A stretch of 64,000 nt of DNA. Source: an uncultured virus (IMG/VR IMGVR_UViG_3300025138_000017) (taxonomy: Duplodnaviria; Heunggongvirae; Uroviricota; Caudoviricetes). Shown here piece after piece: positions 1,420-64,000 of the stretch. Under the pieces are notes generated by a model. It worked only from the letters and a program-made list of their open reading frames with translations. It was not told the origin of the DNA and did not search any database. The stretch's first letter is position 1. Every line of letters starts with the position of its first letter. The position numbers were made by a program, and so were the translations under genes. The DNA is taken from IMG/VR virus record IMGVR_UViG_3300025138_000017; one strand, written 5' to 3'.

Positions 1420-1427
1420 TATTTATA
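1420..1427 (-). promoter_or_regulatory. T4-type late promoter TATAAATA
   Basis: Exact gp55 consensus in the intergenic region upstream of the nucleotidyltransferase gene. Confidence 0.7.
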
Positions 1428-1434
1428 ATAACTT

Positions 1435-2649: not shown

Positions 2650-3593
2650 TATACTGGTAATACTGTTTTAAATTTTAGTTTAAATATTCCACCTGCTAAT
2701 GCTACATCTTTAGCTATAACAGCTGGGTCCGTTGTTACTTTGTCCAAATTGACTTGGTATATTTGTATGCCTGCAGACTCATTATATTTTCCTTCTGAAC
2801 CAACCATATTAATATAGAATTGATCTTTACCTGGCTTGACACTCAATGTTTGTATCACAGAATATGCAAACAATCTAGAAGCAATATGTTCTCCTCCAGG
2901 TCTTGCTCCAGGACCAAAAGCACAATCAGACAATCCTCTTTCTTTAACCATTTTATCAAAATGATCAAACTGTGCTTCCATCTTTGCAAACAATTCGTAT
3001 TTCTTTGCAAATCCTTCCTTCTTAACAAGAGTTCTTAGTTCACAAAATGCTTCTGCAGCTGGTTCAAGATCACCACTTTTAAGTCTCAACACATCTTTTG
3101 CATCAACTCCTGGTTCACCTATTAATGCTTGTACACCAAGTATAGGTGCAATTAAGTTTCTAAAGTCTCTTAATGACTTCTCAAATCTACCTAAACTATC
3201 TAATGAATTCTTTGCTAATGGATATGCTTTAATCTCAAAAGCAGTAGACTTTCCAGATGTCTTGTGTTGTGTTGCAATTAAGTCAGGATTATTACTTCCT
3301 TGATTTTCTTTGATAAACTGTGCCTTAATAGTACCATCATCCTTTCTATTAGCACTATGATAATTAAATAACCAATAAAAAGCTGCCTCACCATAACCTG
3401 TAATTTGATCTGGGATACCGCCATAAGCTATTTTAAAACTTTCTAAATCAGCTCTGTCAGGTTTAAAGATACCGTGCTTTATCTCAGAAATATTATACTT
3501 TCTGCTGGTGCTTGGTATGATAAGATGATCTCCTAACGATCTTCCATCACCAAATGCTTTTTCTATTGTTTGTTCTAATTTGTTTGAAACCAT
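2649..3593 (-). CDS. Hypothetical protein, possible PD-(D/E)XK nuclease
   Basis: 314 aa; GYGE...NPDLIA...AFEIKAY arrangement; preceded by TATAAATA at 3599-3606. Confidence 0.4.
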   Translation of the reverse strand: MVSNKLEQTIEKAFGDGRSLGDHLIIPSTSRKYNISEIKHGIFKPDRADLESFKIAYGGIPDQITGYGEAAFYWLFNYHSANRKDDGTIKAQFIKENQGSNNPDLIATQHKTSGKSTAFEIKAYPLAKNSLDSLGRFEKSLRDFRNLIAPILGVQALIGEPGVDAKDVLRLKSGDLEPAAEAFCELRTLVKKEGFAKKYELFAKMEAQFDHFDKMVKERGLSDCAFGPGARPGGEHIASRLFAYSVIQTLSVKPGKDQFYINMVGSEGKYNESAGIQIYQVNLDKVTTDPAVIAKDVALAGGIFKLKFKTVLPV

Positions 3594-26135: not shown

Positions 26136-26717
26136 TTATGATACGATTCCTACTATGTTTAACAACATCTTAGGATCCCTACCTATTTTTTCAAAATCTT
26201 CTTCTTTTGCTATAGCATTACCGCTAATAGATATCCTTGTATTCCCACTAATATTTTTCTTAGTGAAGTGAGGCATCCAATTAGGAAATATAATTAGCAT
26301 TCCTACTTCTGGTGTCTCTTCCATGACAACAAATTTATTATGTACAGTAGTTTGCCATACAATGTTACCACATTTAGGATCTGTTTTACTATAATACACC
26401 CAGCTTAAACAAGGCGGCACGCCTGGACGATCGTGAGTATGGATCATAGTTGATTCGTTTGGCTCTAAAATATGAGCCCATTGATTATCTGTTTTAAAGT
26501 GAGGATTAATTTCTCTTTGAATAATAGTGTCTACTTCATGTATCAATTTATCGCAAGCTAATGTCTCAGGATAAAAACTATCCTCCTGGAACGTATTGCC
26601 AGGTGTATCATCTAGCTTCATATTTTTTCTAGCTATAACATCTTTATTAATTTGTTCATTATCTATACCGGTAAGTTTTGTTGTAAACTTTCCAGCTAAT
26701 ATTATTGGACTAAACAC
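26136..26717 (-). CDS. Putative 2OG-Fe(II) oxygenase
   Basis: IHTH, SWVYY, GMLIIFPNWMPHF, RISISGN. Confidence 0.8.
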   Translation of the reverse strand: MFSPIILAGKFTTKLTGIDNEQINKDVIARKNMKLDDTPGNTFQEDSFYPETLACDKLIHEVDTIIQREINPHFKTDNQWAHILEPNESTMIHTHDRPGVPPCLSWVYYSKTDPKCGNIVWQTTVHNKFVVMEETPEVGMLIIFPNWMPHFTKKNISGNTRISISGNAIAKEEDFEKIGRDPKMLLNIVGIVS

Positions 26718-27702
26718 CTATCAAGTTCCCCCACAGGTATGTGTGCACTCTTGCTGATACACTATATCCTCTTGCCTGAGCCATTGTAGCAACATCACCA
26801 TCACAAAGTTCTTGACCTTCTACTGTAGCTCCTACAGGCATAATCCATACAGGCCAATCAATACCAACATCTCTATACATTTGTATAACCTCATCTAACT
26901 CGTCCCATTGTTCTTGTTTAGGACCTAGTACAAACTTTAACTGACCATTAGGAATATCTCCATTGCCATTTCTTCTTGAAGCTACTAAATTATAATCTAT
27001 TAGATTCTCTGGCTTGATTGCTCTACTTCTTTTCTCACCTGACACAGTCCATAGTTTAGGTGAACATGACCAGAATATTTTAGGTCTCATACATCCTCTG
27101 TTACTACAGAAGTCTATAAACTCTTGTGTAAGTTTTTGTGTACCATTGGTCTCCCAAGTTACCCACGATGGGAAATTGCCATTATCATTTTCTCTATATG
27201 ACTTTAATATTTCCAATGCTGCTCTCTGTGCATTTCTCATTAATGGCTCACCACCAGTAAACACCATATGAGCTTGTTCGCCTGACTTAGGATGTAAATA
27301 TGTACCTGTCGGATTGTGCTCATTTGTCATACACTTTGCTAGTTCCTGTTTGATCTCTTTTGCAGACTTGTGTTTTTGTAAATGTCTGAACTTCTTTGCC
27401 CAGCTGTATGATGAGTCGCAACCTTTATCCCATACAGGTAGTTCCGTTACATTACTAATAGTAGTAGCATCAAACTTCTCATAAGGTAGCTCCCATGAAT
27501 CTGGATTAGTAGGTTCGTCTTGTCCAAAGCCACTACATTGAAGATTACATAAAAAGAACCTTACCCAAGTACTTGGTACACCAGTAAAGTATCCTTCACC
27601 TTGTATAGAATAAAAAGTCTCACTATATGTAATAGGCATATTATGATCTTTAGGTGGCAATGTATTTGTTACATTTGCTACCTGTATTGTTTCTGGTTTC
27701 AT
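26710..27702 (-). CDS. queE: 7-carboxy-7-deazaguanine synthase QueE (radical SAM)
   Basis: FYSIQGEG, CNLQC...CDS, FTGGEPL, ETNGT, SPKL, QLKFV. Confidence 0.9.
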   Translation of the reverse strand: MKPETIQVANVTNTLPPKDHNMPITYSETFYSIQGEGYFTGVPSTWVRFFLCNLQCSGFGQDEPTNPDSWELPYEKFDATTISNVTELPVWDKGCDSSYSWAKKFRHLQKHKSAKEIKQELAKCMTNEHNPTGTYLHPKSGEQAHMVFTGGEPLMRNAQRAALEILKSYRENDNGNFPSWVTWETNGTQKLTQEFIDFCSNRGCMRPKIFWSCSPKLWTVSGEKRSRAIKPENLIDYNLVASRRNGNGDIPNGQLKFVLGPKQEQWDELDEVIQMYRDVGIDWPVWIMPVGATVEGQELCDGDVATMAQARGYSVSARVHTYLWGNLIGV

Positions 27703-35280: not shown

Positions 35281-35357
35281 TGGCCTGCCTGGTAGGACTT
35301 GAACCTACAACCTATAGCTTAGAAGGCTATTGCTCTATCCAGTTGAGCTACAGGCAG
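35281..35357 (-). tRNA. tRNA-Arg (anticodon UCU)
   Basis: Full cloverleaf: CTGCCTG acceptor stem, GCTC/GAGC D-stem, ATAGC-CTTCTAA-GCTAT anticodon arm, GTAGG-TTCAAGT-CCTAC T-arm, encoded CCA. Confidence 0.96.
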
Positions 35358-39684: not shown

Positions 39685-39692
39685 TATTTATA
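39685..39692 (-). promoter_or_regulatory. Late promoter TATAAATA
   Basis: Exact consensus upstream of gp22. Confidence 0.8.
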
Positions 39693-41399: not shown

Positions 41400-41432
41400 T
41401 ATATTCTCCTGTATTATTTATATAAATTATAC

Positions 41433-45645: not shown

Positions 45646-45653
45646 TATTTATA
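45646..45653 (-). promoter_or_regulatory. Late promoter TATAAATA
   Basis: Exact consensus upstream of gp18. Confidence 0.8.
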
Positions 45654-50380: not shown

Positions 50381-51070
50381 TTATCCCCACGCTAAATCAC
50401 CATTAGCATAATAAACTTTTAATGCTCTGTTTTGGTTGTCTAGCAATGTTGCTCCTACTTGAACATTTGCTCCAAAAAATGTTTTACCATTAACTGAAAA
50501 TAAATGTGCTGGACTTGTATTTCCTATTCCAACATTATTATTAGCAGCTACAGTAACATTGTTACTACTAAACAAGTTATATGAATGTATTTGTACAATA
50601 TCATTATTACTTGCTGCACCTGTTAAGACTACATTAGAACTATTAGTTGCTGTATAGTCAGTTCCGTTTTCTAATAGAATACCATTGAGGAATACTTTAA
50701 GTGAATCTGCTGTTCTATAACTTAATGAAGAACCATTGTTATCATTACCAGCAAAATTAGTTTGGTTAGTTGCTGCAGTGAATTCATATTCTGTAAATGC
50801 ACCTGTTGCAGTAGCTCCACCTTCACCCCAGTATAGAGAACCGTTACCATATGTAGTTATTACTTTACCATTTGCCCCATCTGCTGTTGGGAATGCCATA
50901 GCATTAACTGTCAAACTAGAAAGATTTGCACCAATTTCAAATACTGCTGTTGCGTTCGCTGAGTATAGTTTACCATCAGCTGTGTTAATAGCTAACTCAC
51001 CAGTCTCCAGCTGACTATTTGTTGGTACGTTCTGGCTTACGCTAGATCGTTTAATCTTAATTGTTGCCAT
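50381..51070 (-). CDS. Fibre-like structural protein
   Basis: IKIKRS...GELAINTADGKLY N-terminal motif, VFLNGILL...DY domain, NVGIGNTSP motif. Confidence 0.7.
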   Translation of the reverse strand: MATIKIKRSSVSQNVPTNSQLETGELAINTADGKLYSANATAVFEIGANLSSLTVNAMAFPTADGANGKVITTYGNGSLYWGEGGATATGAFTEYEFTAATNQTNFAGNDNNGSSLSYRTADSLKVFLNGILLENGTDYTATNSSNVVLTGAASNNDIVQIHSYNLFSSNNVTVAANNNVGIGNTSPAHLFSVNGKTFFGANVQVGATLLDNQNRALKVYYANGDLAWG

Positions 51071-51133: not shown

Positions 51134-51397
51134 TTAGTCGTACGTGCCCCCGTCGATATCCATTCCTGTATTAGCTAAAGTAAATGTATCGTTGGCTGAA
51201 TCGTAAACTAACATACCATTATCTACTTCTGGGTCAGTATCAACATCTAATAAATCTTTAAGATTAGCAGATGATAATGAACTACTTGTAGTTACGGTAA
51301 AAACGTTTGTTGTATTTAATTGATTGTGTTCTATACCACCACTTGGTATTTCAACTTTCAAGTTTAATGCTGCATCATTGAATAAGGTATTACTCAT
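51134..51397 (-). CDS. Small virion-associated protein
   Basis: LKDLLDVD...LVYDS...IDGGTY motifs typical of phage fibre modules. Confidence 0.6.
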   Translation of the reverse strand: MSNTLFNDAALNLKVEIPSGGIEHNQLNTTNVFTVTTSSSLSSANLKDLLDVDTDPEVDNGMLVYDSANDTFTLANTGMDIDGGTYD

Positions 51398-51729
51398 TAC
51401 TTGGTTACCTCTGGGGTCACAGTTACCATCCCCTCTAATATTCTGGATTTAATTCCACCACTGTTAGTTAGCTCAGCATCGTAAACAAATCTACCTGCAT
51501 TCATAGCAGCTGTTGTAGCATTGTTTAATGCTAATGTCAATGTTGAGTTGGCAGTGGATAGTGTAGCTGTAAAAGCTGTGGAATTAGATGAAGAAAAAGT
51601 TTTTCTTATTTGAGCAGCTGCAGAGTATCCAGACAGGTTTACGTTTGTACCCGCTGCATCTTTTAAATTAACTGTCGTAGAAAAGTCTGTGCCTTGATCT
51701 ATTATTATATTAACCTTAGTGGCCATCAA
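51397..51729 (-). CDS. Ig-like/BppU-like virion protein
   Basis: NIIIDQGTDF...GRFVYDAEL...RILEG. Confidence 0.65.
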   Translation of the reverse strand: MMATKVNIIIDQGTDFSTTVNLKDAAGTNVNLSGYSAAAQIRKTFSSSNSTAFTATLSTANSTLTLALNNATTAAMNAGRFVYDAELTNSGGIKSRILEGMVTVTPEVTK

Positions 51730-51774: not shown

Positions 51775-52113
51775 ATGCAACTGCGAACTGACTTTAAATA
51801 TGCATTAGTCGAAGAATATCAGACTTATTGGAATGCATACGATAACCCAAACGAATTTTACTCAGACATTTTAAGTATGGATCCATCTATGTATGAACAT
51901 TTTGCCGCAAGAAGATTAGCAGCAAAGGGACAAAATGGATTAGTAGAGCTCAAATTAATTGACCAAAATACATTATGGTTTGTAATGTATGGTAAAACTA
52001 AAAGAGCTCTTGATTGTTTAGAGGTCGTTAATAAAGATCAAATTAATTATCTTGGATCTAAAAACAGATTAAATGTAGAAAGAAAGATTATTGACTTGCA
52101 AAAGACTGGTTAG
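51775..52113 (+). CDS. Hypothetical protein on the plus strand
   Basis: 112 aa with GAGG SD; fills a gap with no competing ORF; has its own late promoter. Confidence 0.7.
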   Translation: MQLRTDFKYALVEEYQTYWNAYDNPNEFYSDILSMDPSMYEHFAARRLAAKGQNGLVELKLIDQNTLWFVMYGKTKRALDCLEVVNKDQINYLGSKNRLNVERKIIDLQKTG

Positions 52114-52864
52114 CATTTAAGTAGCTAGCTTCTTTTCCTTGAGCTTTCTCTTCTGACTCAAGTTCTTCAATAATATCTTCCCATATATTCTCATCAAAGA
52201 CAACCCAACCTAAAGTTATTCTTGGTCCACCATAGGCAGAATGCCACATAATTTTATTATGTTCTTCTTTCTTACCATAGTATCCAAGTTTGCTATGCCA
52301 TCCAACTGGATCTTGCATATGCACTAACTTGCTGTCTGGATCAGGTCTAACTGAACCTTCTTTCTCTTCTGATGAGTCAAGGTGACGCCAATAGCCTTCC
52401 CCTGTAGGATTCCATGTAAACAGACAATTAAATCCTGGTACATTCCAATTAGTATGCCAAGCAATGTATCCATCTTTAGGATAATACATTTTTAGTGCAC
52501 AGAATTTATATCCAATATATGCTCCCAAGGTATCGTCGAGCCATTGAGATTTCTCAATATATTTTTTAATCCAATCTTTTTCTTCGGAAGAAAATCTTTC
52601 TCCTTCCATTTGTAGAGTTCTTTTTAATGTGGGTTCATTTAGATCATATCCATAACTGTCTGGTGGAAACCCATCATGTGTTTCTGCTGGTGTGCTCTTA
52701 ACGCACTCTAATGAAGCAGCATACTCAGCTCTATCTTCTTTTTTAAATTTACCTTTTGTTTTCCAATTTGGTAAATTTACATCTGGTGGATTTGCTGATA
52801 CCCAATCGCTATATTCATTTAAGACGGTCAAAAGATCCGTAGGTAGTGTCAAAAGTTGTCTCAT
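52088..52864 (-). CDS. Cupin/2OG-Fe(II) oxygenase-like protein
   Basis: YYPKDGYIAWHTN...MWHSA...RITLGW double-stranded beta-helix pattern (HxN in place of HxD). Confidence 0.55.
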   Translation of the reverse strand: MRQLLTLPTDLLTVLNEYSDWVSANPPDVNLPNWKTKGKFKKEDRAEYAASLECVKSTPAETHDGFPPDSYGYDLNEPTLKRTLQMEGERFSSEEKDWIKKYIEKSQWLDDTLGAYIGYKFCALKMYYPKDGYIAWHTNWNVPGFNCLFTWNPTGEGYWRHLDSSEEKEGSVRPDPDSKLVHMQDPVGWHSKLGYYGKKEEHNKIMWHSAYGGPRITLGWVVFDENIWEDIIEELESEEKAQGKEASYLNANQSFASQ

Positions 52865-53657
52865 TGATTATAAAAGCCTCCCGCTTATGTACTTGCTTGG
52901 AATCTATAGTGTAGTGCAAAAATGCTTTTTTAGATCCAGGCCTCAATTCAGTTTCACGATACCCTGTAACAAAATTATATTTTGCATCATTAGGCATCCT
53001 TTTTATATTTATCTGCATATCTGGATTTTCATATAATGCTCTCCAGAATGCAAATGTATCCCAATACGTTAGCCCTTTAGGAAACGGTTTGGTGTTCTTT
53101 TCAACTGTATGTCTTTTATACCAATACAGCCATTGCTCCCATAGTTTTTGTGTTCGCTCATTCTTACGCCAGACAAACATTCCACAATGCCATCTAAACT
53201 TATGAGCCTTTCCTTGTTTGTATAACTCAACATGATCAGGATTATAGTGTTCTAACTCTTCTCCAGGTATACCGGGTCCTACTTGATCGTCGTGTGTAAA
53301 GTAAACGACTTTAGCATTGTAAGGTCTATTCTCTGACATGACAACATCTGCATCACCTAATAAATCAAAAACTTCTTCTATTTCATTGCTTAGTACAAAT
53401 CCATCTACATCCAAATAACATGTAACGTCAAATGGTGTCAATGGTAATGCCCATAACTTTGTTCTACAATGTACTGGTACTGGTGTTATAAGATGATCAA
53501 ACAAATGTCTATCTTCATCTCTTACCCACTCTTCATGAGTAAACACTGCTACCTTTGCATCAGGTACCTCATCTTTCAATGATTGAACGCACATAACCAT
53601 TGCTTCATAGAATGGTTTTGATAATGTAGCTACTAAAAGATAACCTCTAGTTTCCAT
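52815..53657 (-). CDS. GT-A (GT8-like) glycosyltransferase
   Basis: RTKLWAL...TCYLDVD (DxD), HCGMF, WDTFAF, KYNF, FLHY. Confidence 0.78.
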   Translation of the reverse strand: METRGYLLVATLSKPFYEAMVMCVQSLKDEVPDAKVAVFTHEEWVRDEDRHLFDHLITPVPVHCRTKLWALPLTPFDVTCYLDVDGFVLSNEIEEVFDLLGDADVVMSENRPYNAKVVYFTHDDQVGPGIPGEELEHYNPDHVELYKQGKAHKFRWHCGMFVWRKNERTQKLWEQWLYWYKRHTVEKNTKPFPKGLTYWDTFAFWRALYENPDMQINIKRMPNDAKYNFVTGYRETELRPGSKKAFLHYTIDSKQVHKREAFIINETTFDTTYGSFDRLK

Positions 53658-54180
53658 CCTTTTCAGCTTCCTTAATTAAAATAGCAGATCCAAATGCTCT
53701 TGCCTCTTCGGCCGTTAATGCTGATCTAAGTTTTCTTTTTAAATTTTTATGTTCTGTATTTTTAACAGTAGGTATATCAAGAAACATAGATTTAACATTC
53801 CATAAGTCTGCTCGAGACTTTTCTCTTTCTTCTGCCTTCTTCATTTCTTCTGATGATTTTGACAAAGCTGACTGTATTGCTGCTTGTCTTTTAGTATTAT
53901 GTCTAACTTCATCTTCACTAAATTGTCTTTTTATATCTCTATACAATGGATGGTTTTGATCTTTAGGAATTCCTTTTTCTTGAGTAGCCATTCCATCTGG
54001 TCTTAATAACACACATGATAATTCTGTCCGAGCATTATTTGTATAATGTGGATTTACAATTACCGGTAATGTAGGATCCAGATGTAACTCTGGAATTGGA
54101 AGAGTTCTTAGTTCTTCTTTCTTGGGGGTTTCGACTGTGACTCCTTCTGGAATCTTAGCCATTTTAGGTTCTTCTGCCAT
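53647..54180 (-). CDS. Hypothetical protein
   Basis: 177 aa with GAGG SD; first gene after the dual promoter at 54203-54231. Confidence 0.7.
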   Translation of the reverse strand: MAEEPKMAKIPEGVTVETPKKEELRTLPIPELHLDPTLPVIVNPHYTNNARTELSCVLLRPDGMATQEKGIPKDQNHPLYRDIKRQFSEDEVRHNTKRQAAIQSALSKSSEEMKKAEEREKSRADLWNVKSMFLDIPTVKNTEHKNLKRKLRSALTAEEARAFGSAILIKEAEKDGN

Positions 54181-54202: not shown

Positions 54203-54231
54203 ATTATATACTATTCTATTTATAAGGTCAA
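54203..54231 (-). promoter_or_regulatory. sigma70 promoter with an embedded late promoter
   Basis: TTGACC-17 nt-TATAAT, with TATAAATA (54217-54224) inside the spacer. Confidence 0.7.
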
Positions 54232-54234
54232 CAG

Positions 54235-57200
54235 TTAAGCTGTTCTAACCCATAGTTTTAATGTTGTTATTGTTTCTGTACCAGCCTGTACTGTTTGTCC
54301 AGCATATGCATGAGTATAGGTTCCTTCGTATTGGGCTACAAAGTTAGTTGTAAATGAACCCTCATATGCTTTTTCATATTGTTTAGTGTATTGGCCAATG
54401 TATGCTTTTTCGTATTGTGTTGTAAATGATCCCTCAAATAATTGCGTATAGGTCTTAACATAGTTACCTGTAAACTGCTGATCAAATTGACCAGAGTATG
54501 ATTTTTCATACAAGCCAACATATGCTTTTTCAAATTGTTGAGTAAACTGACCTGTAAATGTTCCTTCGTAATCTTTAGAATATATTTTTAACCAAGTACC
54601 AACATATGATCTTTGGAATTCGCCTTCATATTGTTTAGTATATTGACCAAGATATTCGCCAGAGTATTGGCCAAGGAATGATCCAACCCAAGCCTTTTCA
54701 AACTGTCCTACATATATGCCTTCATATTGTTTGTTAAATGATCCTTCAAACTGTTTACTAAATTGTTTTGCATATTGTTTAGTATATTGTCCTGTGTACT
54801 GTCCTAAGTATGACTTGACGTATGAACCAGTAAACTCACCTTCATATGTTTTAGTATATTGTCCAACATATGATGCACCAAATTGGCCTTCAAAAGTTCC
54901 TGTATACTGTCCAATATATGTACCTTGATATATTCCCTGGTATGCATGTGCACCTTCATATATTCCTGTCCAGTATCCTATGTATACTCCTTCATATGTT
55001 TTTTCATACTGTCTTGTAAACTGGCCAGTGTATTGGCCATCATATTGTCCACTAAATGTTCTGTCACCTGTCCATTGCTTGGCATATGCTTTCTGATAGT
55101 TTGCACTTACATATGTTGTGTTGAAGACTCCTTCCCACTGATGAGCATATTGCCCCTCGTATGATCTGTCTCCTTCAAATTGACCTGCATATTGTTTTAC
55201 ATATTCAACTACAAATACCTTTTGATAATTAGCTGAGTATTGTCCTGTATATGTTCTTGATCCAGAGTATGCTTTGGTATAGGTTTTATTAAATACTCCA
55301 GTGTATTGAGTGCCATACTGACCTGTATATGTTCTGTCGCCTTCATATTGTTTAGCAAATTGGCCTTCCCAGTTTCTAGCAAACGAACCTTCATATGTTT
55401 GACCATATTCTTTTTGATAGTTCTTAGTATAAGCTCTAGCGTATTGGCCTACAAACTGCGTATTGAATACTCCAACATATATTCCTTCGTATAATGTTAA
55501 GTATGTTTTGCCATATTGTCCAACAAATGATTTTAAGTAATCAGTTGTAAATGATCCTTGATATGATTTAGTATAGTTAGTATCAAATGAACCTTCATAT
55601 AATGCTAAGTATTGTTTATTGAATTGGCCTTCGTATGCTTTAACGAACAATCCAGTATATGTTTTAACATATGATGTTTCAAATACACCTTCATATGCTT
55701 TTTCATAATTAGTTGCAAACTGCCCTTCATAAGTTTTTTCGTAATTAGTTCCAAACTGGCCTGTGTATGTTGTGTCATAGTTTGTAGCAAATTGACCTTC
55801 ATACAGTTTAGCATATTGTACTCCAAACGCACCCTCATATTGAGTAGTATATTGGCCTTCATATGCTTTAGCATATGTAGTATTGAAGTCTCCTTCGTAT
55901 TGAGCTACATAATCTTTAGCATAGTTTGTACTAAATATTCCTTCATACAATTTAGCATATTGTGTAGAAAACTGTCCTTCATATGCTTTAGCATATTGTT
56001 GTGTATAGTTAGTTGTGTATGTTCCTTCAAACACACCACCGTATATGTTTGTATATTGACCAATGTATGCTTTTGCATATTGCTCACTAAATTGTCCTAA
56101 GAATGCTTTAGAGTATGATCCAGTATATGCTTTTGCATATTGCTCAATATAATCTTTAGAGTAGTTGTCTGTAAATGCACCAGTAAACTGACTAGCATAT
56201 TGTCCAAGATATGCTTGAGCATAGTTGACTGATTCCCCACCTGTAAACTCTCTTGCATAAGAACCTGTATATGTTTTCTGGTATTGGTTAACATAGTTCT
56301 TAGCATAGTTATCTGTAAACTGTCCTTCGTATACATCTGTATATTGGCCTACATAATTCTTAGTATAATTGGTAGTATATGTTCCTTCAAACACTCCACC
56401 GTATATGTTAGTGTATTGACCAACATAGTTCTTAGCATATTGTGTTTGATATATTCCTACAAATGCTTTGGTGTAAGTTCCTGTATAATCTTTTTGGTAA
56501 TTAGTAGAATATATTTTTGTATAGTTATCTGTATACTGGCCAGTGTACTGTCTGTCATAGTTTCCAGCATAAGTTTTAACATATTCAGTTACATAATCTT
56601 TAGCATAGTTATCAGCAAATTGTCCTGTAAACTGTCTATCATAATTACCCTCATATTGCTTAGCATATTGAGCAATATAATCTTTAGCATAGTTGTCTGT
56701 AAATTGACCTTCATATGCTTTATCAAAATTCTTTATATATGATTTAGCATACTGTGTGGTATAGGTTCCTTCGAAGACACCACCATATATGTTCGTATAT
56801 TGACCAACATAATTCTTAGCATAATTTTCTGTAAACGCACCTTCGTATTGAGAAACAAATACACCCTCATATGTTTTAGTGTATTGTGTTGTGTATGCTC
56901 TTTCATATGAAGCTGCAAACAATCCTACATACTGACCTTCAAATTGTCCTTCATAGTTAGTAGCATATTGTCTTTCCCAGTTTTTAGTATAGTTGGTCGT
57001 AAACAATCCTGTGTATTGGTCTGTAAATTGACCTACGAATGCTTTTGTATAGTTTCCAGTATATGCTCTATCATAGTTGCCCGTATAGTCTCTAGTATAA
57101 TTGGTTGTATATTGAGCATCAAATGATCCAGTAAATTGACTTGCATATTGTCCAACATAATTTTTGGTATAGTTAGTTGCATATGATCCAGCAAACACGC

Positions 57201-60200
57201 CACCGTATATGTTTGTATATTGACCAACATAGTTCTTAGTATAGTTTGTTACATAATCTCTAGAATAATTGGTTGTGTATACTCCAACATATGCTTTTGT
57301 CCACTGACCTGAATATGCTTTTTGGAAGTTCTTATTATAGTTACCAGTAAACTGTCCGGCAAACCCTCTTGAGTATTGACCGATCCATTGTTGAGCATAG
57401 TTGGTTACAAACGTACCCGCAAACACGCCTTCATATATATTTGTATATTGACCTACATATGCTTTCTGATAAGCAGTAGAGTAAGTTCCGTCAAACGAAC
57501 CACCATATATGTTTGTGTATTGGCCTACGTATGCTCTTTGATATGCTGTGTTATATGTTCCTGAAAATGCACCTTCATAGATATTCGTATATTGACCAAC
57601 ATAGTTTTTAGTATAATTGGTTGCATACTGGCCAGTAAAGGTTTTAGTATATTGACCAGTGTATTGTTTTAAATAGTTAGTAGCATATTGACCAGTATAT
57701 GTTTTAGTATATTGTCCTGTATATGTCTTAGTATAATTTACATCATAGTTTTTAGTATAATTGGTTGCATACTGACCAGCAAACGCTTTTGTATATTGAC
57801 CTGTGTACTGTTTTAAATAGTTTCTAGTATATGTTCCACTAAACTGTGTATTGTAAGTTCCAGAATATGCTCTATCATAGTTTCCAGCATAAGTCTTAGT
57901 GTAATTACCAGTATATGATTTTGTGTATTGACCAGTATATTGTCTTAAAAAGTTGGTAGCATACTGACCAGAATATCCTTTAGTATAATTACCAGTATAA
58001 GAACCTGTATACTGTCCAGTGTATGCTCCAGTATATTGACCTGCATATGCTCTTTGATAGCTAGTGTCATATTGTTTTAAATAGTTTTTATTATATGAAC
58101 CACTAAACTGCTTAGTATATTGACCAGTATATTGTTTTAAATAATTGGTTCCATACTGGCCAGCAAATTGTCTATTATATGTACCACTAAACTGTTTGTT
58201 ATAGTTACCTGCATATGCTCTAGTGTAGTTAGTTGCATATGTTCCACTATATTGTGTAGCGTATGTTCCTGTGTACTGTCCAGAATAAGCTGTTGAGAAA
58301 TATCCTGTATATTGTTTAGTATAGTTGCCTGTAAATTGTCCTGTGTACTGTCCAGTAAATCCTCTAGTATATTGTCCTGTATACTGTCTTAAATAGTTAG
58401 TACTATAGGACCCTGTATATGTTGTACTAAAGTATCCTGTATACTGACCTGAATATGTTGCAGTAGTTTGAGAGAAACAACCTTCGTATTCTTCAAAGTC
58501 ATCATCACCAGTATCAATAAAGATTCTACAATATGTACCACCACTACTGAATTGTTGAGATACTGACCCTACAAATGTTCTAGTATAGTTAGTTGTTTTT
58601 ACATAGTTTAAAAATTGGCTCCCAAATTTACTAGAGACAACCCTGTTGTAAGTTACATTACCAGCAAACTGTCTAGTATAATTTACATTTGCAGTACCAG
58701 TAAATTGTTGAACTGCCCCAACATAGTTTCCTGTATATTGAGTAGATCTGGTTACTCTTACATAGTTTCCTGAATAAGCTCTTGTATAGTTGGTTCCATA
58801 TGATCCACTATATTGTGAATTATATGTTCCGGAAAATTGACTACTATATGTTCCAGCAAATTGTTTTGAGTAGTTTGTAGTTCTAGTTACCCTAGAATAA
58901 CTTCCTGTCCATTGTCTTGAGAAGTTTCCTGTATACTGTCCTGTGTATTGTCTTGTATAGTTAGTGCTGTAATATCCAGTATATGTCTTAGTATAGTTTC
59001 CTGAATATGCTTTTGTATAGTTACCTGTATACTGTCTTAAAAAGTTAGTACCATATGTTCCACTATACTGTGCTGAGTATTGACCTGTGTACGATCTAGT
59101 AAAGTTAGTTCCATATTGTCTTGTATAGTTGGTAGCATAGTATCCTGTATACTGTCCAGAATAGGTTCCACTATACTGTCCTGAATATGCACCAGAGTAT
59201 GCTCTGTCATAATTTCCTGTATAATGTTTAGTATAGTTAGTTCCATATGTTCCAGCAAATTGACTGGTGTACGTGCCACTATATGCTCTATCATAGTTTC
59301 CAGTATATCTTTTAGTATAGTTACCTGTATATGATTTAGTATATTGACCTGTGTATGCTTTTTGGAAGTTAGTACCATACGTTCCACTATATTGAGAACT
59401 ATAGTTACCTGTGTACTGTCTTTGATACTGAGCCGTATAAGTTTTTAAATAGTTTTTATTATAGTCACCAGAGTATGCTCTGTTATAGTTTCCCGTATAA
59501 TGTTTAGTATAGTTAGTTCCATATGTTCCAGAATATTGTTTATTGTAGTTACCTGTATACTGTCTAGTATAGTTAGTAGCAAATGACCCTTCCCATATTC
59601 TATCATACTGTCCTATATAAGAACCAACATATGCTTTAGTATAGTTTCTAGCAAATGATCCTTCCCATATTCTATCGTATTGTCCTACATAAGATCCAAC
59701 ATATGCTTTAGTATAGTTTCTAGTAAATGATCCTTCCCATATTCTATCGTATTGTCCTATGTACTGACCAACATATGCTTTCTGATATTGAGCTGCGTAT
59801 GGTCCTAAGAATGTTCCTGTGTATACTCCAGTCCATTGCGTCTGGAATAATTTAGTATAGTTGGTATTATATACGCCAGTGTAGGTGGTGTTATAGGAAC
59901 CTTCATATGCTTTCTGATATTGTTTAACATAATTCTTAGCATAGTTTGTAGCAAATGAACCTTCCCAGATTCTATCATATTGTCCTACATATTGGCCAAC
60001 ATAGTTTTTAGTGTAATTCTTTGCAAACGTTCCTTCGAATGCTCCTGTGTATTGTCCTAGCCAAACTTTAGCATATTGCTTTGCATATGCTTTTTGATAT
60101 ACGCCTGTATATGTTTTGGTGTATACGCCTGTAAATATTGTAGAGTATACTCCTTCCCATATCTTGGTGTACTGGCCTTCATACTGTGCAGCCCATTGTA

Positions 60201-63200
60201 CAAGATATGCTTTTTGATATTGTTTTGTATATACTCCAGTCCATTGTTTTGCATATGAACCTTCCCACTGTTGTGCGTATGCTGCAACATATTGTTTAGC
60301 ATATTGTTTTGAATACTGACCGACATAAGCCTTTTCATATTGTCCAAGGTAAACTTTATCATATTGGGTAACAAATGTTCCTTCCCATATTCTATCATAT
60401 TGGCCTACGTATTGGCCAACATATGCTTTCTCGTATTGTTTTGAATAAGCCTTTTCATATGTTTTTACATATTGTCCGGTCCACTGTTGTTGATATTGAG
60501 CAACATAGTTTTTAGCATAGTTGGTTGTATACTGTCCTGTGAATCTTCCTTCGTATTGTCCAGCCCATTGTTGTAGGTATTGGGCAACATAGTTTTTAGC
60601 ATATGCAGTTTGGAATTCACCTGCATATCTTTTTTCGTATATTCCTGTCCACTGTTGCTGGTATTGTGCTGCATAGTCTTTTTGATACTGACGAAGATAA
60701 ACACCAACATAGTCTGTCTCATAAGATCCTTCATAATCTTTGGTGTATTGAGTAACAAACGTACCTTCCCATATTCTATCGTATTGTCCTATGTACTGAC
60801 CAACATATGCTTTTTCGTATTGTTTAGCAAATGTTCCTTCCCATTGCTTAGTGTACTGACCTGCCCATTGTTGTTCGTATTGGGTTACATAATCTTTAGC
60901 ATAGTTAGTATTATAGTCGCCATCAAATGCTCTTTCGTATGCACCAGCATATGCCTTTTGATATTGTGTTACAAACTGGCCTTCAAATGCTCCTGTGTAT
61001 TGTCCTACCCATTGTTGCTGATATTGCTTAACATAATTCTTAGCATAGTTGGTTTCATAGTCGCCAAGATATGCTTTAGAGTATGAGCCTTCGTATTGTT
61101 TATCGTATTGAGTAACAAACGTACCTTCCCATATTCTATCGTATTGTCCTACCCATTGACCAACATAAGCCTTTTCATATTGCTTACTATATTGTTTTAC
61201 ATATTGACCAATGTAATCTTTTGTATATTGAGCTACGTATTGACCAACATATTCTTTTGTATATTGTGCAACATAGTTCTTAGCATATTGTCCTGTGTAT
61301 GCTTTTATATAATTTGTAGTATACTGACCACCATATTGACCAGCATAGAGACCTACATATGCTTGGCCCCAGTTTTGTTCATATAATCCTGTGTATTGAT
61401 TAATCCACGTCTTACCGTATACGCCTGTATACTGTTGAAGATAATTACGTGCGTAGATTCCTGCATACTGTTTTAAGTATTGTGTTGCGTATTGGCCAAC
61501 GTATTGTTTAGCATAACCTTTGTTCCAATTACTTAAATAATTCTTTTCATAGGATCCAACATATGCTTTCTCCCATATTCTATCATATTGGCCAACATAT
61601 GTCTTTGTGTATTGAGCTTCGTATATTCCAACATAATCTTTTGTGTATGTTTTTATATACTGGCCTATGAAATCCTTTTCGTAGTTCTTAATATAAGAAC
61701 CTACATAAGCTCCTTCAAATGTTTTTTGATATGCTCCAACATAATCTTTATTATATGATGTAACATAATCTTTTATATAACCAGCAGTATAGTTACCAAC
61801 ATAATTAGCTTCTAAGAAATATCCTGAGAATAATTCTGAAGCACTATCATATTGTCCAGTGAATGTTCTATCACCTTCGTATTGTTTTGTATACTGACCT
61901 GTATATGCTTTTAAGTATCCTTGAGTATAGAAACCATTATATTCTCTATCACCCTCGTATGCTTTTGTAAATTGCTTTTGATAGTTTGTACCAAGATACC
62001 CTTTACTAAAGTTTTGAGTAAATTGGCCAGTGTATGTTCTTGTTCCAGTATATTGTTTTGTGTATTGACCTGTGTATGATGCTGTCCAATTACCAATATA
62101 TATTTTTTGGTATTGATCTGCATACTGTCCTGTATATGTTCTACTACCAGCGTATGTGCCTTCGTATGAGCCCGTATACTGCTTTGCATATTGCTCAACA
62201 TACTGTCCCGTATAGTTAGCTGCGAAAATGCCTTCAAACTGTTTTACGCCGGTGTAATACCCTGTGTATTGTCCATCGAACGAGCCTTCAAATTGTTTAG
62301 AGTATGCTCCAGTCCATTGTTGGCCAAATGATCCTTCATATTGTTTACTATACTGTCCTGTGTAAATTCCTGTATAAGTTGTATTAAAAGATCCTTCAAA
62401 TACACCTTCGTATATTTTACTGAATGTTCCTTCAAATTGGCCTTCGTATTGCCCCAGGTATGCACCCATGTACTGTCCAGCAAACGCTCCGGAATATTGG
62501 GAAATAAAGAATCCATCAAACGAGCCTTCATATTGCTTAGTAAATGAGCCTTCGTATTGTTTGCTGTACAGACCAGTATAAGACTTAAGATATATTTTAT
62601 CATATTGGCCAACATACTGTTTAACATATACGCCTGTATATGTTCCTTCAAAAGAACCTTCGTATTGGGTTAAGAATGTTCCTTCGTATTGTTTTGTGTA
62701 GTTTCCAGAAAATGAACCTTCATACAATCCGGTATATGTTTTATTAAAGTTTCCTTCATATTGTCCAATATATTCTTTTGTATATTGGGAAACAAAGACA
62801 CCCTCATATTGTTTTTCGTAATGGTGTGTGTATATACCGACATATTGCTTTGCATATTGAGATGCATATTGGCCAACATAGTTTGTATTGTATCCTATAT
62901 CAGCTAAAGTGTTTCTATTATCAACAAATGATCCACCTACTTGTACCCAGGTCTCACCTGAAGCTGCAGGGTTAGTCGCTGATAATTTATATTGTCCTAT
63001 ACCAGTAGCATATATTTGATTTCTCAATCTCATTGCTAATAGTTTTATCTCTGCATCGGACATCTCTTTAATTGCAGAGTTTTGAATTTTTGCTGTTCTA
63101 ACAACAGAAGGTGCAGAAACACCTTGGGTCTTACGCCATAAGGTATATGTAGTCGTACCACCTAAAGTGGTATCGGTCATTGTGGATCCAGTACTTGTAT

Positions 63201-63639
63201 AAAGGCTATTGTTGGGATTTGTTTCAGACAAGTGGTAGGATCCCAAACCGGACGATGTAAGATTCGCAAGTGCTCTTGATATAAGGACAGAGTTTAGAGT
63301 ATTACTATGCTCAGATGCATAGCCGCTGTCATTAAGAAACAATGGGTACACCATAGATGTTTCTGCGATCGAATTGAGATTTTGTTTAAGTGTATATGTT
63401 TGGGACGTTATATTATTAGCAGCTGGATGAGTACCTACGCTTTCTGTTCTATAGGTATCAGTGAAAGAACCCATTGAGGTTCCCTGTCCATTTATGTTTA
63501 AAGTACCAAGGCCAGAAGTGCTTGTTGAGAATTCAGATAGAATTTGATGGACGGCGTAATCCATCTCGGTAGTCTGCATTTCCTGCACACCGAGAAAAGT
63601 ACCCCCTCCGGTCGTTTTTATTCTAAGTGGATTTCCCAA
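54235..63639 (-). CDS. Giant (3134 aa) aromatic tetrad-repeat protein with mirror-symmetric arms; putative beta-hairpin fibre
   Basis: Uninterrupted 9.4 kb ORF with TTG start. Residues ~250-3112 carry Y/F/W at every 4th position. Central C1704-C1721 acidic loop. Confidence 0.85.
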   Translation of the reverse strand: MGNPLRIKTTGGGTFLGVQEMQTTEMDYAVHQILSEFSTSTSGLGTLNINGQGTSMGSFTDTYRTESVGTHPAANNITSQTYTLKQNLNSIAETSMVYPLFLNDSGYASEHSNTLNSVLISRALANLTSSGLGSYHLSETNPNNSLYTSTGSTMTDTTLGGTTTYTLWRKTQGVSAPSVVRTAKIQNSAIKEMSDAEIKLLAMRLRNQIYATGIGQYKLSATNPAASGETWVQVGGSFVDNRNTLADIGYNTNYVGQYASQYAKQYVGIYTHHYEKQYEGVFVSQYTKEYIGQYEGNFNKTYTGLYEGSFSGNYTKQYEGTFLTQYEGSFEGTYTGVYVKQYVGQYDKIYLKSYTGLYSKQYEGSFTKQYEGSFDGFFISQYSGAFAGQYMGAYLGQYEGQFEGTFSKIYEGVFEGSFNTTYTGIYTGQYSKQYEGSFGQQWTGAYSKQFEGSFDGQYTGYYTGVKQFEGIFAANYTGQYVEQYAKQYTGSYEGTYAGSRTYTGQYADQYQKIYIGNWTASYTGQYTKQYTGTRTYTGQFTQNFSKGYLGTNYQKQFTKAYEGDREYNGFYTQGYLKAYTGQYTKQYEGDRTFTGQYDSASELFSGYFLEANYVGNYTAGYIKDYVTSYNKDYVGAYQKTFEGAYVGSYIKNYEKDFIGQYIKTYTKDYVGIYEAQYTKTYVGQYDRIWEKAYVGSYEKNYLSNWNKGYAKQYVGQYATQYLKQYAGIYARNYLQQYTGVYGKTWINQYTGLYEQNWGQAYVGLYAGQYGGQYTTNYIKAYTGQYAKNYVAQYTKEYVGQYVAQYTKDYIGQYVKQYSKQYEKAYVGQWVGQYDRIWEGTFVTQYDKQYEGSYSKAYLGDYETNYAKNYVKQYQQQWVGQYTGAFEGQFVTQYQKAYAGAYERAFDGDYNTNYAKDYVTQYEQQWAGQYTKQWEGTFAKQYEKAYVGQYIGQYDRIWEGTFVTQYTKDYEGSYETDYVGVYLRQYQKDYAAQYQQQWTGIYEKRYAGEFQTAYAKNYVAQYLQQWAGQYEGRFTGQYTTNYAKNYVAQYQQQWTGQYVKTYEKAYSKQYEKAYVGQYVGQYDRIWEGTFVTQYDKVYLGQYEKAYVGQYSKQYAKQYVAAYAQQWEGSYAKQWTGVYTKQYQKAYLVQWAAQYEGQYTKIWEGVYSTIFTGVYTKTYTGVYQKAYAKQYAKVWLGQYTGAFEGTFAKNYTKNYVGQYVGQYDRIWEGSFATNYAKNYVKQYQKAYEGSYNTTYTGVYNTNYTKLFQTQWTGVYTGTFLGPYAAQYQKAYVGQYIGQYDRIWEGSFTRNYTKAYVGSYVGQYDRIWEGSFARNYTKAYVGSYIGQYDRIWEGSFATNYTRQYTGNYNKQYSGTYGTNYTKHYTGNYNRAYSGDYNKNYLKTYTAQYQRQYTGNYSSQYSGTYGTNFQKAYTGQYTKSYTGNYTKRYTGNYDRAYSGTYTSQFAGTYGTNYTKHYTGNYDRAYSGAYSGQYSGTYSGQYTGYYATNYTRQYGTNFTRSYTGQYSAQYSGTYGTNFLRQYTGNYTKAYSGNYTKTYTGYYSTNYTRQYTGQYTGNFSRQWTGSYSRVTRTTNYSKQFAGTYSSQFSGTYNSQYSGSYGTNYTRAYSGNYVRVTRSTQYTGNYVGAVQQFTGTANVNYTRQFAGNVTYNRVVSSKFGSQFLNYVKTTNYTRTFVGSVSQQFSSGGTYCRIFIDTGDDDFEEYEGCFSQTTATYSGQYTGYFSTTYTGSYSTNYLRQYTGQYTRGFTGQYTGQFTGNYTKQYTGYFSTAYSGQYTGTYATQYSGTYATNYTRAYAGNYNKQFSGTYNRQFAGQYGTNYLKQYTGQYTKQFSGSYNKNYLKQYDTSYQRAYAGQYTGAYTGQYTGSYTGNYTKGYSGQYATNFLRQYTGQYTKSYTGNYTKTYAGNYDRAYSGTYNTQFSGTYTRNYLKQYTGQYTKAFAGQYATNYTKNYDVNYTKTYTGQYTKTYTGQYATNYLKQYTGQYTKTFTGQYATNYTKNYVGQYTNIYEGAFSGTYNTAYQRAYVGQYTNIYGGSFDGTYSTAYQKAYVGQYTNIYEGVFAGTFVTNYAQQWIGQYSRGFAGQFTGNYNKNFQKAYSGQWTKAYVGVYTTNYSRDYVTNYTKNYVGQYTNIYGGVFAGSYATNYTKNYVGQYASQFTGSFDAQYTTNYTRDYTGNYDRAYTGNYTKAFVGQFTDQYTGLFTTNYTKNWERQYATNYEGQFEGQYVGLFAASYERAYTTQYTKTYEGVFVSQYEGAFTENYAKNYVGQYTNIYGGVFEGTYTTQYAKSYIKNFDKAYEGQFTDNYAKDYIAQYAKQYEGNYDRQFTGQFADNYAKDYVTEYVKTYAGNYDRQYTGQYTDNYTKIYSTNYQKDYTGTYTKAFVGIYQTQYAKNYVGQYTNIYGGVFEGTYTTNYTKNYVGQYTDVYEGQFTDNYAKNYVNQYQKTYTGSYAREFTGGESVNYAQAYLGQYASQFTGAFTDNYSKDYIEQYAKAYTGSYSKAFLGQFSEQYAKAYIGQYTNIYGGVFEGTYTTNYTQQYAKAYEGQFSTQYAKLYEGIFSTNYAKDYVAQYEGDFNTTYAKAYEGQYTTQYEGAFGVQYAKLYEGQFATNYDTTYTGQFGTNYEKTYEGQFATNYEKAYEGVFETSYVKTYTGLFVKAYEGQFNKQYLALYEGSFDTNYTKSYQGSFTTDYLKSFVGQYGKTYLTLYEGIYVGVFNTQFVGQYARAYTKNYQKEYGQTYEGSFARNWEGQFAKQYEGDRTYTGQYGTQYTGVFNKTYTKAYSGSRTYTGQYSANYQKVFVVEYVKQYAGQFEGDRSYEGQYAHQWEGVFNTTYVSANYQKAYAKQWTGDRTFSGQYDGQYTGQFTRQYEKTYEGVYIGYWTGIYEGAHAYQGIYQGTYIGQYTGTFEGQFGASYVGQYTKTYEGEFTGSYVKSYLGQYTGQYTKQYAKQFSKQFEGSFNKQYEGIYVGQFEKAWVGSFLGQYSGEYLGQYTKQYEGEFQRSYVGTWLKIYSKDYEGTFTGQFTQQFEKAYVGLYEKSYSGQFDQQFTGNYVKTYTQLFEGSFTTQYEKAYIGQYTKQYEKAYEGSFTTNFVAQYEGTYTHAYAGQTVQAGTETITTLKLWVRTA
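54304..62892 (-). repeat. Degenerate 12-nt periodic coding repeat with higher-order units
   Basis: Codes [Y/F/W]xxx tetrads (YTGQ, YEGS, YTKN and similar); near-identical DNA blocks recur, e.g. at 60751-60790 and 61111-61150. Confidence 0.9.
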
Positions 63640-63643
63640 TTTA

Positions 63644-64000
63644 CTAAGCCTTTAATTTAAACGCGCTATCCCCAAATACGCTACCAGTATTTATAAAACT
63701 TACTCGACTAGCATCATAACCTATTATAGCTGATCCTGGCTCGCCTCCGTTTCCTGACTGTGCGTATTGAGAATAGTGGGTTCCTGGGTTAGCAACATTC
63801 TGTGATGCATCTGAGTCATCATTATACCCGCCTGCACCTGTTCCTAGTTGACCTAGTAATCCACCATTTCCTCCATGTATGCCTAATGCTGTGGATGCAT
63901 TAGTGCCATTTCTATCTGAACTGCTTTCTGAAATGAAAGCTCCTGAATTCCATCCAGCACCAGTTCCACCGATGCCTCCAGAGCTACTTACTCCGTTTAC
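63644..64000 (-). CDS. C-terminal part of a glycine-rich protein, resembling a T-even gp38-type adhesin (5' end outside the window)
   Basis: Translated by hand: SSGGIGGTGAGW...GGNGGLLGQLGTGAGG...GNGGEPGSAIIGYDASRVSFINTGSVFGDSAFKLKA*. Confidence 0.6.
   Translation of the reverse strand, partial: VNGVSSSGGIGGTGAGWNSGAFISESSSDRNGTNASTALGIHGGNGGLLGQLGTGAGGYNDDSDASQNVANPGTHYSQYAQSGNGGEPGSAIIGYDASRVSFINTGSVFGDSAFKLKA
63688..63695 (-). promoter_or_regulatory. Late promoter TATAAATA for the giant gene
   Basis: Exact consensus about 50 nt upstream of the TTG start, inside the upstream gene's 3' end. Confidence 0.6.

Follow-up and report, generated by a model that had tools for sequence, protein, structure and literature searches.

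A giant protein with two arms in antiparallel register, a candidate fold-back fibre of an uncultured T4-like phage

The 64,000-nucleotide stretch of IMG/VR record IMGVR_UViG_3300025138_000017 (the window, which denotes the whole stretch of DNA that was analysed) is part of an uncultured T4-like phage. All of its long open reading frames lie on the minus strand, and one of them is a giant gene whose product of 3,134 amino acids is termed P0001. The TTG start codon of the gene aligns with the ATG start of its orthologues, which begin MGNPL[RK]IK. P0001 is composed of an N-terminal domain, two very long arms of aromatic tetrads that are separated by a nonperiodic tip, and a short conserved C-terminal strand. 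At the level of the sequence, the two arms are found in an antiparallel register, in which the residue numbers of facing positions add up to a nearly constant pairing sum S (i + j), and this register is conserved among the orthologues through paired insertions and deletions (indels). The gene and the parts of its product are arranged as follows.

54235..63639, minus strand: giant gene, 3,134 codons plus stop, TTG start at 63639
62893..63639, minus strand: N-terminal anchor domain, residues 1-249, with three internal repeats, each a helix followed by G.G.Y.L...P
58723..62892, minus strand: arm 1 (outward), residues 250-1639, tetrads of the type [Y/F/W]-x-[G/K]-[Q/N]
61804..62247, minus strand: phase-breaking stretch of arm 1, residues 465-612, with G-x-R at 498, 532, 563 and 589
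58897..61812, minus strand: core of arm 1, residues 610-1581, in one unbroken register (i + j = 3366) with arm-2 residues 1785-2756
58432..58722, minus strand: apex or tip, residues 1640-1736, nonperiodic, with the mirror axis (3366/2 = 1683) inside
54304..58431, minus strand: arm 2 (return), residues 1737-3112, delimited by tetrad periodicity and the hairpin alignment
54940..55347, minus strand: phase-breaking stretch of arm 2, residues 2765-2900, with G-x-R at 2767, 2793, 2823 and 2858
54238..54303, minus strand: conserved C-terminal strand, residues 3113-3134, motif G.T[IV]...E..S...LW.R.A

The tetrads follow the composition [Y/F/W] - [T/V/E/A/S] - [G 40-60%, K 24-30%, T, R] - [Q/N/A/T]. 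An aromatic residue had been reported at every fourth position over residues ~250-3112 in the initial annotation of this DNA. The period of four is retained, and it runs without a phase break through residues 613-1581 and 1737-2765; the phase is broken at 462-613, 1581-1737 and 2765-2900, and only there. With a period of four and glycine at one tetrad position only (40-60%), the repeat lacks the glycine at every third position of collagen-like or polyglycine-II structures. The apex harbors the sole two cysteines of the protein (1704 and 1721), which flank the acidic run DTGDDDFEEYEG and could be part of a disulfide-closed or metal-binding loop.

The register is illustrated by landmark motifs that are mirrored between the arms. 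The W of YDRIW lies at residues 837, 957, 1085, 1225, 1301, 1325 and 1349, and the last Y of YTNIY at 2533, 2413, 2285, 2145, 2069, 2045 and 2021, so that each of the seven pairs adds up to 3370; these positions and sums are exactly those of the initial annotation, as are the positions of the eight G-x-R insertions. An eighth YDRIW with its tryptophan at 689 had been missed; it is faced, at position 2681, by the last Y of a degenerate copy, YLALY-EGSF. The chance that seven in-phase sites, placed randomly among the 257 tetrads, mirror the arm-1 pattern is p <= 2e-11. A second set of landmarks is formed by the W of QQW at 877, 925, 997, 1025 and 1053, which pairs with the D of DNY at 2491, 2443, 2371, 2343 and 2315 at a sum of 3368 and takes in all five DNY sites and five of the six QQW sites of the arm-1 core. 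YDRIW and YTNIY are direct homologues (YVGQYDRIWEGTF vs YVGQYTNIYGGVF), and the figure of 3370 therefore depends on the residue that is counted in each motif. The constancy of i + j is retained, and its value is corrected to a residue-level sum of 3366 in the core and 3362 near the base of the arms.

The glycines give the clearest view of the register at residue level. At S = 3366 the Gly or non-Gly state of the tetrad centre agrees between the arms in 232 of 242 core tetrads (binomial p = 2e-52), compared with 52 +/- 5.8% and a maximum of 62% at 84 other in-phase registers. Ninety-one of the 97 arm-1 glycines lie opposite a glycine, and lysine lies opposite Thr (28), Lys (19) or Arg (9). At the base of the arms, 31 Gly:Gly pairs are counted at S = 3362 and at most 21 at 34 other values of S. 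Comparison of the protein with its reversed sequence had been expected to give an anti-diagonal at about 3360-3370, and the identity peak falls at 3366. Coarser scans agree, with a peak at 3364-3372 for local composition and at 3360-3368 for the similarity of direct-oriented 48-residue windows (top of 420 values).

Residues of the two arms are also coupled. The inter-arm mutual information peaks sharply at S = 3364, 3366 and 3368 only. With the tetrad positions written pos0 to pos3, the register of 3366 is marked by pos2:pos2 (1.12 bits vs 0.25 +/- 0.13; z 6.8), pos1:pos3 (z 4.6) and pos3:pos1 (z 5.3), that of 3364 on the polar face by pos1:pos1 (z 5.9) and pos3:pos3 (z 4.4), and that of 3368 on the aromatic face by pos0:pos2 (z 5.7). 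Such a direct partner together with a diagonal neighbour, at j-2 on one face and at j+2 on the other, would be expected of a twisted antiparallel two-stranded sheet. Coupling favours complementary over identical residues: E:V is found 15 times (3.3 expected) and V:E 12 times (4.6 expected), and identical pairs occur 18 times where 34 are expected. Asp or Asn occupies the diagonal site for 14 of the 27 arm-1 tryptophans and for one of 280 Tyr/Phe (p = 5e-16), and at 40 other registers the count is at most 4.

A dynamic-programming alignment of arm 1 with the reversed arm 2 pairs 1,419 residues nearly without gaps and with a total drift of 7. From the base outward, S takes the values 3362 (residues 250-514), 3361, 3362, 3365, 3366 (610-1581, 972 pairs), 3367 and 3368; it is confined to 3361-3368 up to residue 1648, and the last 27 pairs, in the aperiodic apex, lie at 3361. 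Across the arm-1 insertions (465-612) the sum holds at 3361-3362; the G-x-R insertions leave it undisturbed because both arms carry them at facing places. The motifs of the two arms are direct homologues that are set in mirrored order, and each facing pair of modules therefore forms a pseudo-twofold unit, like an antiparallel homodimer. The antiparallel register that had been proposed between the two halves is thus borne out by the Gly palindrome, the mutual information, the hairpin alignment and the registers of the orthologues.

Four full-length close relatives of 3,134, 2,838, 2,645 and 2,436 amino acids are present in IMG/VR, with N-terminal domains that are 66-99% identical; a fifth locus is cut off. 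Each of the four has one dominant Gly:Gly register, and the difference between its pairing sum and its length (S-L) is 232, 231, 230 and 235 (z 7.3, 7.6, 7.7 and 6.2). The Gly state agrees in 256/305, 227/273, 248/268 and 142/211 tetrads, respectively, compared with a maximum of 60-64% at 60 other registers. In pairwise alignments the length differences are made up of dozens of indels in both arms, mostly in multiples of 4. Facing indels are exemplified by the comparison with the orthologous locus L003, in which 32 residues at 980-1011 are matched by 32 at 2353-2384, and 16 at 1157-1172 by 16 at 2190-2205; of the 296 extra residues of P0001, 147 lie in arm 1 and 140 in arm 2. The cumulative indel profiles of the two arms correlate with r = 0.9956, 0.9929 and 0.9908 for the three orthologues, the first value, with a mean |D1-D2| of 3.4 residues, being that for L003. 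Indels in only one arm had been named beforehand as an argument against pairing, and the orthologues, which are 296, 489 and 698 residues shorter, carry tracking indels in both. The alignment of repeats is ambiguous and the arm totals differ in the comparison with locus L004 (215 vs 276), so that more weight is given to the register of each single protein.

An exhaustive phmmer search among 1.84 billion sequences with the N-terminal 250 residues returned 320 representatives at E <= 1e-3, 196 of them at E <= 1e-10; an earlier word-indexed search, which used residues 1-260 and was limited to proteins of 1,723-5,485 amino acids, had given 0 matches. From their sequences, these ~250 residues define an unnamed family that is built of an anchor, a body of aromatic tetrads and a C-terminal strand. 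Motif, length and alignment analyses were carried out on the best 150 of the 320 representatives. In 109 of these the C-terminal motif ...L[WY].[RK].A is present, which the C-terminus of P0001 (TLKLWVRTA) fits, and their lengths range continuously from 273 to 1,578 amino acids. Larger members reach 4,046 amino acids, and the bodies vary from almost nothing to ~3,700 residues between constant ends. Alignment A1, which holds 63 short members, contains a glycine that is conserved in at least 90% of its rows (G340 of homologue P0052) and lies at the midpoint of the body (254-426). This glycine is part of a Y-x-[RL]-[YF]-[YF]-[SG]-G turn, and the gaps of the alignment open on either side of it. Mirror axes were scanned in 52 members whose bodies comprise 140 residues or more; the best axis deviates from the body midpoint by no more than 5% in 22 of them and by no more than 10% in 32 (about 5 and 10 under the null). 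A Gly:Gly peak within 2% of the midpoint is found in 10 of the 52, and an aromatic peak in 13. The largest aperiodic gap was also tried as an apex finder in the family and was discarded as too noisy. A Pfam scan of 17 relatives gave nothing in 16 of them and FG-GAP in P0002 only; a guess that mid-body domains such as that of P0151 are lectin-like was dropped, as it found no Pfam support in the relatives scanned.

Stretches similar to the aromatic-tetrad arms are also seen in baseplate wedge proteins of ~1,800 amino acids from other phages (among P0008-P0015), two of which, P0008 and P0009, match phrog_17744 at ~1e-158. The aromatic repeat looks like a portable module that, to judge from these similarities, extends beyond the unnamed family and may serve as a shaft in fibre and baseplate proteins.

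Structure predictions are most informative for the two ends of the chain. The AlphaFold2 (AF2) model of P0052 (448 amino acids), computed with alignment A1, reaches a predicted local distance difference test score (pLDDT) of 93-98 over residues 1-250 and contains three helices. Its only long strands are 242-267 and 413-446 (C-terminal pLDDT 81-98), which are mirror partners under P0052's own register of 680. For P0001, ESMFold2 was applied to residues 3024-3134 and 1-340 and gave an interaction prediction score from aligned errors (ipSAE) of 0.84 (runs 0.86, 0.84 and 0.70), compared with 0.00 for the best of three controls; 116 of 157 solved complexes and 2 of 215 mismatched pairs attain this mark, a calibration that is rough here because the alignment was custom-made. 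Between the runs, at least 25% of the contacts coincide. Docking of the C-terminal 22 residues into the N-terminal domain is thus predicted, with strand 3113-3134 inserted between strands 213-224 and 228-249. The best predicted contacts (230:3132, 231:3131, 232:3130 and 233:3129) all add up to 3362. This is the register that was derived independently for the adjacent arms, so that the ladder would pass from the domain into the arms with no change of register.

Searches for a known fold or family returned little. The best matches of the anchor in a fold comparison with VIA are MABP β-prisms, namely 6sb1 with Z 7.2 (root-mean-square deviation (rmsd) 3.5, 115 residues aligned) and 2qp2 with Z 6.8 (3.8, 113), where by the tool's own note a Z of ~7 is the usual best score of a model without a true match. 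They are followed by 8b6v (Z 5.6, rmsd 4.3, 111 aligned) and 3tow (Z 5.5, rmsd 5.3, 119 aligned), and the remainder score at most 2.9. Foldseek found nothing at E <= 1e-3 for the P0052 model in PDB and BFVD. A sequence search of PDB with the giant protein gave a low-complexity match only (E 0.16), and Pfam gave no family for P0001 at E <= 0.01. The sole PHROGs match, phrog_2468, is weak (E 6e-5, no stretch passing alone) and is taken as compositional, and megablast of the giant gene against phage records gave no match.

The surroundings of the giant gene contain the following features.

63644..64000, minus strand: upstream gene, 3' end, coding for the C-terminus of a fibre protein that carries a gp38-like adhesin domain
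63688..63695, minus strand: TATAAATA, a T4-late-promoter-like site, 49 nt upstream of the giant-gene start and within the 3' end of the upstream gene
52088..54180, minus strand: three small downstream genes (177, 280 and 258 amino acids) that travel with the giant gene and have syntenic homologues
51397..51729, minus strand: LtfC-like tail-fibre assembly protein, 110 amino acids (phrog_3304, 7e-22; Pfam LtfC, 1.5e-4, below the family cut-off)

The upstream fragment is 87% identical to the end of a 952-residue protein of L003 (L003:7136-9994), which matches Pfam GP38 (7.8e-11), and further upstream the genes of L003 include a tail-fibre protein with an S74 intramolecular-chaperone domain. The giant gene is placed in a tail-fibre module because of the gp38-like adhesin fibre gene upstream, the LtfC-like gene downstream and the S74 tail-fibre gene in L003. 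Downstream, homologues of T4 gp13, gp14, gp15, gp16, gp17, gp18, gp19, gp20, gp21, gp22 and gp23 are found. The closest major capsid proteins of deposited phages are those of Stenotrophomonas phage DLP_6 (73%), Synechococcus phage S-SKS1, the Methylophilales Melnitz phages and Pelagibacter phage Mosig. The three small downstream genes have syntenic homologues in phage C48C1 (E 3e-7, 1e-16 and 4e-20) and open reading frames of equal size in L003. Both the late-promoter-like site of the initial annotation and the tail-fibre neighbourhood are real. TATAAATA presumably matches the T4 late consensus; it occurs 14 times in the window, on the coding strand in 13 cases and on the opposite strand in one, a total that is not above chance (10.6 expected). 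The copies mostly lie directly upstream of structural genes, for example at 54217-54224, 45646-45653, 41415-41422 and 39685-39692.

Several neighbours deserve mention in their own right. The 952-residue L003 protein has an aromatic-tetrad region at ~30-610 with an irregular centre and a Gly:Gly palindrome peak of its own at i + j = 639 (z 5.2), and this neighbouring fibre protein may, by its sequence, hold a second, smaller hairpin module. The 280-residue neighbour (52815-53657, minus strand) carries a DxD-type motif, YLDVDG, and lies near Atlas clusters with Nucleotid_trans/Glyco_transf_8 (score 0.96; Pfam PF03407 E 0.07); the 258-residue neighbour (52088-52864, minus strand) gives weak leads only (0.86-0.87), to 2-oxoglutarate (2OG)-Fe(II) and Asp/Asn hydroxylases. 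The glycosyltransferase-like and hydroxylase-like products may be modifiers of the fibre, in which Lys, Thr and Tyr abound. A 229-residue protein (50381-51070, minus strand), whose first ~44-74 residues match the N-termini of giant baseplate-wedge and tail-fibre PHROGs (2.5e-8 and 3.3e-7), may be a short fibre with a common attachment module. Further away, the replication genes include QueE-like radical SAM, Nol-like carbamoyltransferase and cytidyltransferase-like genes (26710-27702, 5229-6818 and 1-2649, minus strand), possibly a set for the modification of DNA or sugars. A lone tRNA-Arg(TCT) gene is located at 35281-35357 (minus strand).

Taken together, the product of the giant gene is probably a giant fold-back fibre of a T4-like phage, whose two arms would form a two-stranded antiparallel β-ribbon. 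Residues 1-249 would form a three-repeat, β-prism-like anchor of pseudo-threefold symmetry. The chain would exit this anchor as arm 1 (250-1639), run for ~1,390 residues to the small nonperiodic tip (1640-1736), and come back as arm 2 (1737-3112), antiparallel to arm 1 and in register with it. The final 22-residue strand would then lock back into the anchor domain. Across the ribbon, an aromatic would face an aromatic, and the middle residue of each tetrad its counterpart as Gly:Gly, Lys:Thr or Lys:Lys. From this register it follows that one face of the ribbon would be an aromatic ladder over glycines and the other a polar face of T/V/E/A and Q/N. The fibre would project from the tail-fibre or baseplate region, with the tip far from the virion for contact with the host, and such a far-off tip would enlarge the capture radius in dilute water. 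We infer the pairing within one chain, the geometry of a two-stranded ribbon, the attachment to the virion and the role in host contact, along with a length of up to ~450 nm (~1,390 residues x ~0.33 nm), or less if the ribbon is coiled.

Several points weigh against a fold-back fibre of this kind. The modules within an arm are duplicates, so the pair counts are non-independent and the p-values given above overstate the significance; the evidence is carried by the order and exact spacing of the modules. The mirror-axis scan of the family, which is biased toward an irregular tip at the fold point, places the best axis more than 10% off the midpoint in 20 of the 52 members, and the layouts of the giant relatives C48C1, P0002 and P0004 are more complex. 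The arms are of low confidence in both the AF2 and ESMFold2 folds: the mid-body of P0052 has a pLDDT of 37-50, and AF2 without an alignment gave an unusable model of residues 1290-2080 (pLDDT 30), with 6-residue strands and 2-residue breaks. In the ESMFold2 runs the partner pLDDT is 34-40, and the confident interface comprises residues 3113-3134 only, with the arm segments 250-340 and 3024-3112 outside of it. The register alone is equally compatible with pairing inside a chain and with an antiparallel pairing of different chains. The gene is absent from cultured phages; among 50,697 deposited records, a relative is carried by the metagenomic phage C48C1 only. Finally, ~350 aromatic pairs on a single exposed face would be physically awkward for a monomeric ribbon. 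So large an exposed aromatic face argues for coiling or further association, and 450 nm is therefore an upper bound. A free extended two-stranded ribbon of a single polypeptide, ~0.4 micrometre long, is accordingly given rather less than an even chance, as the aromatic face probably demands coiling or lateral association.

A serious possibility, falling a little short of an even chance, is a real hairpin that is coiled on itself or that packs with others (e.g. three hairpins) through the aromatic faces, which would yield a thicker and possibly shorter rod. One face is nearly pure aromatic and glycine and is better buried, while the polar face with its Q/N and T suits exposure to solvent. T4-type fibres, moreover, are typically trimers. 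No result of the analysis counts against coiling or bundling; the three-repeat anchor would be a pseudo-threefold unit of a single chain, which does not itself need trimerisation.

The arms could also pair between chains, with arm 1 of one copy lying against arm 2 of another and the C-terminal strands swapped into the N-terminal domains of the partners. The resulting domain-swapped antiparallel dimer or polymer would be up to twice as long and have anchors at both ends. A constant i + j and paired indels are equally expected in this case, and the ESMFold2 docking, in which two separate chains were used, is blind to cis and trans. The short family members, however, have arms of only ~20-80 residues that are joined by the conserved Gly-containing turn in mid-body, and AF2 places the C-terminal strand of monomeric P0052 confidently (pLDDT 81-98). 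In addition, a fibre with anchors at both ends and its tips midway would have no obvious use on a virion. Pairing between chains is considered unlikely.

A chain that folds back as proposed might still act outside of the virion, as an assembly scaffold or ruler, or as a product that works in the infected cell or outside of it. The giant protein is assigned to the virion by no PHROG or Pfam family, which leaves room for such a role. It appears improbable given that the gene lies within a tail-fibre module, behind a late-promoter-like site and beside a fibre assembly gene, and that the same aromatic repeat is found in the baseplate wedge proteins (phrog_17744) and in the neighbouring adhesin-bearing fibre protein.

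Local folding of each arm into a β-solenoid or triple β-helix rod, without contact between the arms and with an incidental mirror, is strongly disfavoured by the sequence and very improbable. The low-confidence AF2 models do show short strands at an 8-residue period, but the landmark spacings of 24, 76, 120, 128, 140 and 148 have 4 as their greatest common divisor, and no fixed coil length fits them. Independent arms would also give no reason for the palindrome in 232 of 242 tetrads, the paired indels in three orthologues or the coupling across the arms. That the mirror is a by-product of an inverted duplication of the DNA can be dismissed, as a blastn comparison of the two arms yields 95 direct and 0 inverted high-scoring segment pairs, so that no DNA inverted repeat exists between the arms, whose motifs are direct homologues.

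Among known systems, the proposed fold-back fibre comes closest in principle to the needle of T4 gp37. According to PMC6957217, domain D10 of the gp37 tip (PDB 2XGF) is made up of residues 811-881 and 1010-1026, and the D11 needle (882-1009) is inserted into D10. The gp37 trimer is held by seven iron sites on histidines. As in the fibre proposed here, an elongated domain inserted in a base domain leads out to a receptor-binding tip and back, and gp37, too, is a phage fibre that is encoded in the same kind of gene module. For the giant protein this topology emerges from sequence statistics and prediction, i.e. the antiparallel register of 1,419 pairs and the predicted C-terminal docking. The excursion comprises 128 residues in gp37 and ~2,860 in the giant protein; the latter has 0.2% histidine in its body, lacks the gp37-type His-x-His iron sites, and is built of aromatic tetrads. 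No sequence or fold match was found between gp37 and the giant protein, and the collar-type fold of gp11 (1el6) aligns with the anchor over 45 residues at a Z of 2.9 only.

The nearest analogue in fold is the MABP domain of perforin-2, which has a hyper-extended hairpin according to PMC7593815. MABP β-prisms of perforin-2/MPEG1 P2 (6sb1), Plu-MACPF (2qp2), Mpf2Ba1 (8b6v) and MVB12B (3tow) are the four best fold matches of the anchor, at Z scores in the chance range. The MABP hairpin spans tens of residues and the arms of the giant protein ~1,400 residues each, and Pfam does not place the protein in an MABP family at E <= 0.01. Neither the gp37 needle, as the nearest known principle, nor the MABP domain thus shares its defining sequence features with the giant protein.

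The closest deposited relative is CDS0201 of phage C48C1 (OQ984149, Kyanoviridae), a "hypothetical protein" of 3,347 amino acids that has the N- and C-termini of the giant protein and is followed, as in the window, by the three downstream genes and the Ltf-assembly gene. It is ~30% identical, its best mirror axes are internal and do not span the whole chain, and its close metagenomic relative P0002 has FG-GAP repeats. CDS0201 is unannotated, and no literature on phage C48C1 was found, the one paper under the name "C48C1" being unrelated.

Long, thin, β-rich shafts of short repeats are known from the triple β-helices of T4 gp5C and gp12 and from the triple β-spiral of adenovirus. These shafts are parallel assemblies of three chains with a fixed repeat length and no return path. 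Unlike them, the giant protein has an antiparallel register between the halves of one sequence and no fixed coil length. Two-stranded or single-layer sheets with cross-strand aromatic pairs and no conventional core are represented by the tryptophan zippers and OspA, which comprise 12 to ~100 residues; the giant protein would be a natural ladder of ~350 aromatic pairs. The tentaclins, a "tentacle" family of receptor-binding proteins, were also considered and set aside as unrelated, since they are chains of C-type lectin and immunoglobulin domains. The initial annotation knew of no characterised phage fibre of this design, and the literature searches, which covered 8.4 million papers, agree in that no described fibre of such a design was found, with subscription journals outside their scope.

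To our knowledge, phage fibres of known structure are parallel bundles of chains. With one chain running out and back, a fold-back fibre would solve the construction of a long appendage differently. As a free-standing ribbon, it would contain the longest β-hairpin known by more than an order of magnitude, with ~350 cross-strand aromatic pairs over Gly:Gly, in a ribbon that is anchored by a pseudo-threefold β-prism completed by its own C-terminus and whose length evolves via mirrored pairs of indels. The sequence holds its own contact map in the palindromic glycines, the coupling of Trp with Asp/Asn and the paired indels. The protein would also be a natural test of how far a two-stranded sheet can extend without a hydrophobic core, and, for protein design, a nanofibre of programmable length. 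With respect to phage ecology, it points to very long and thin "fishing-line" fibres in abundant uncultured aquatic T4-like phages, which would alter estimates of their encounter radius.

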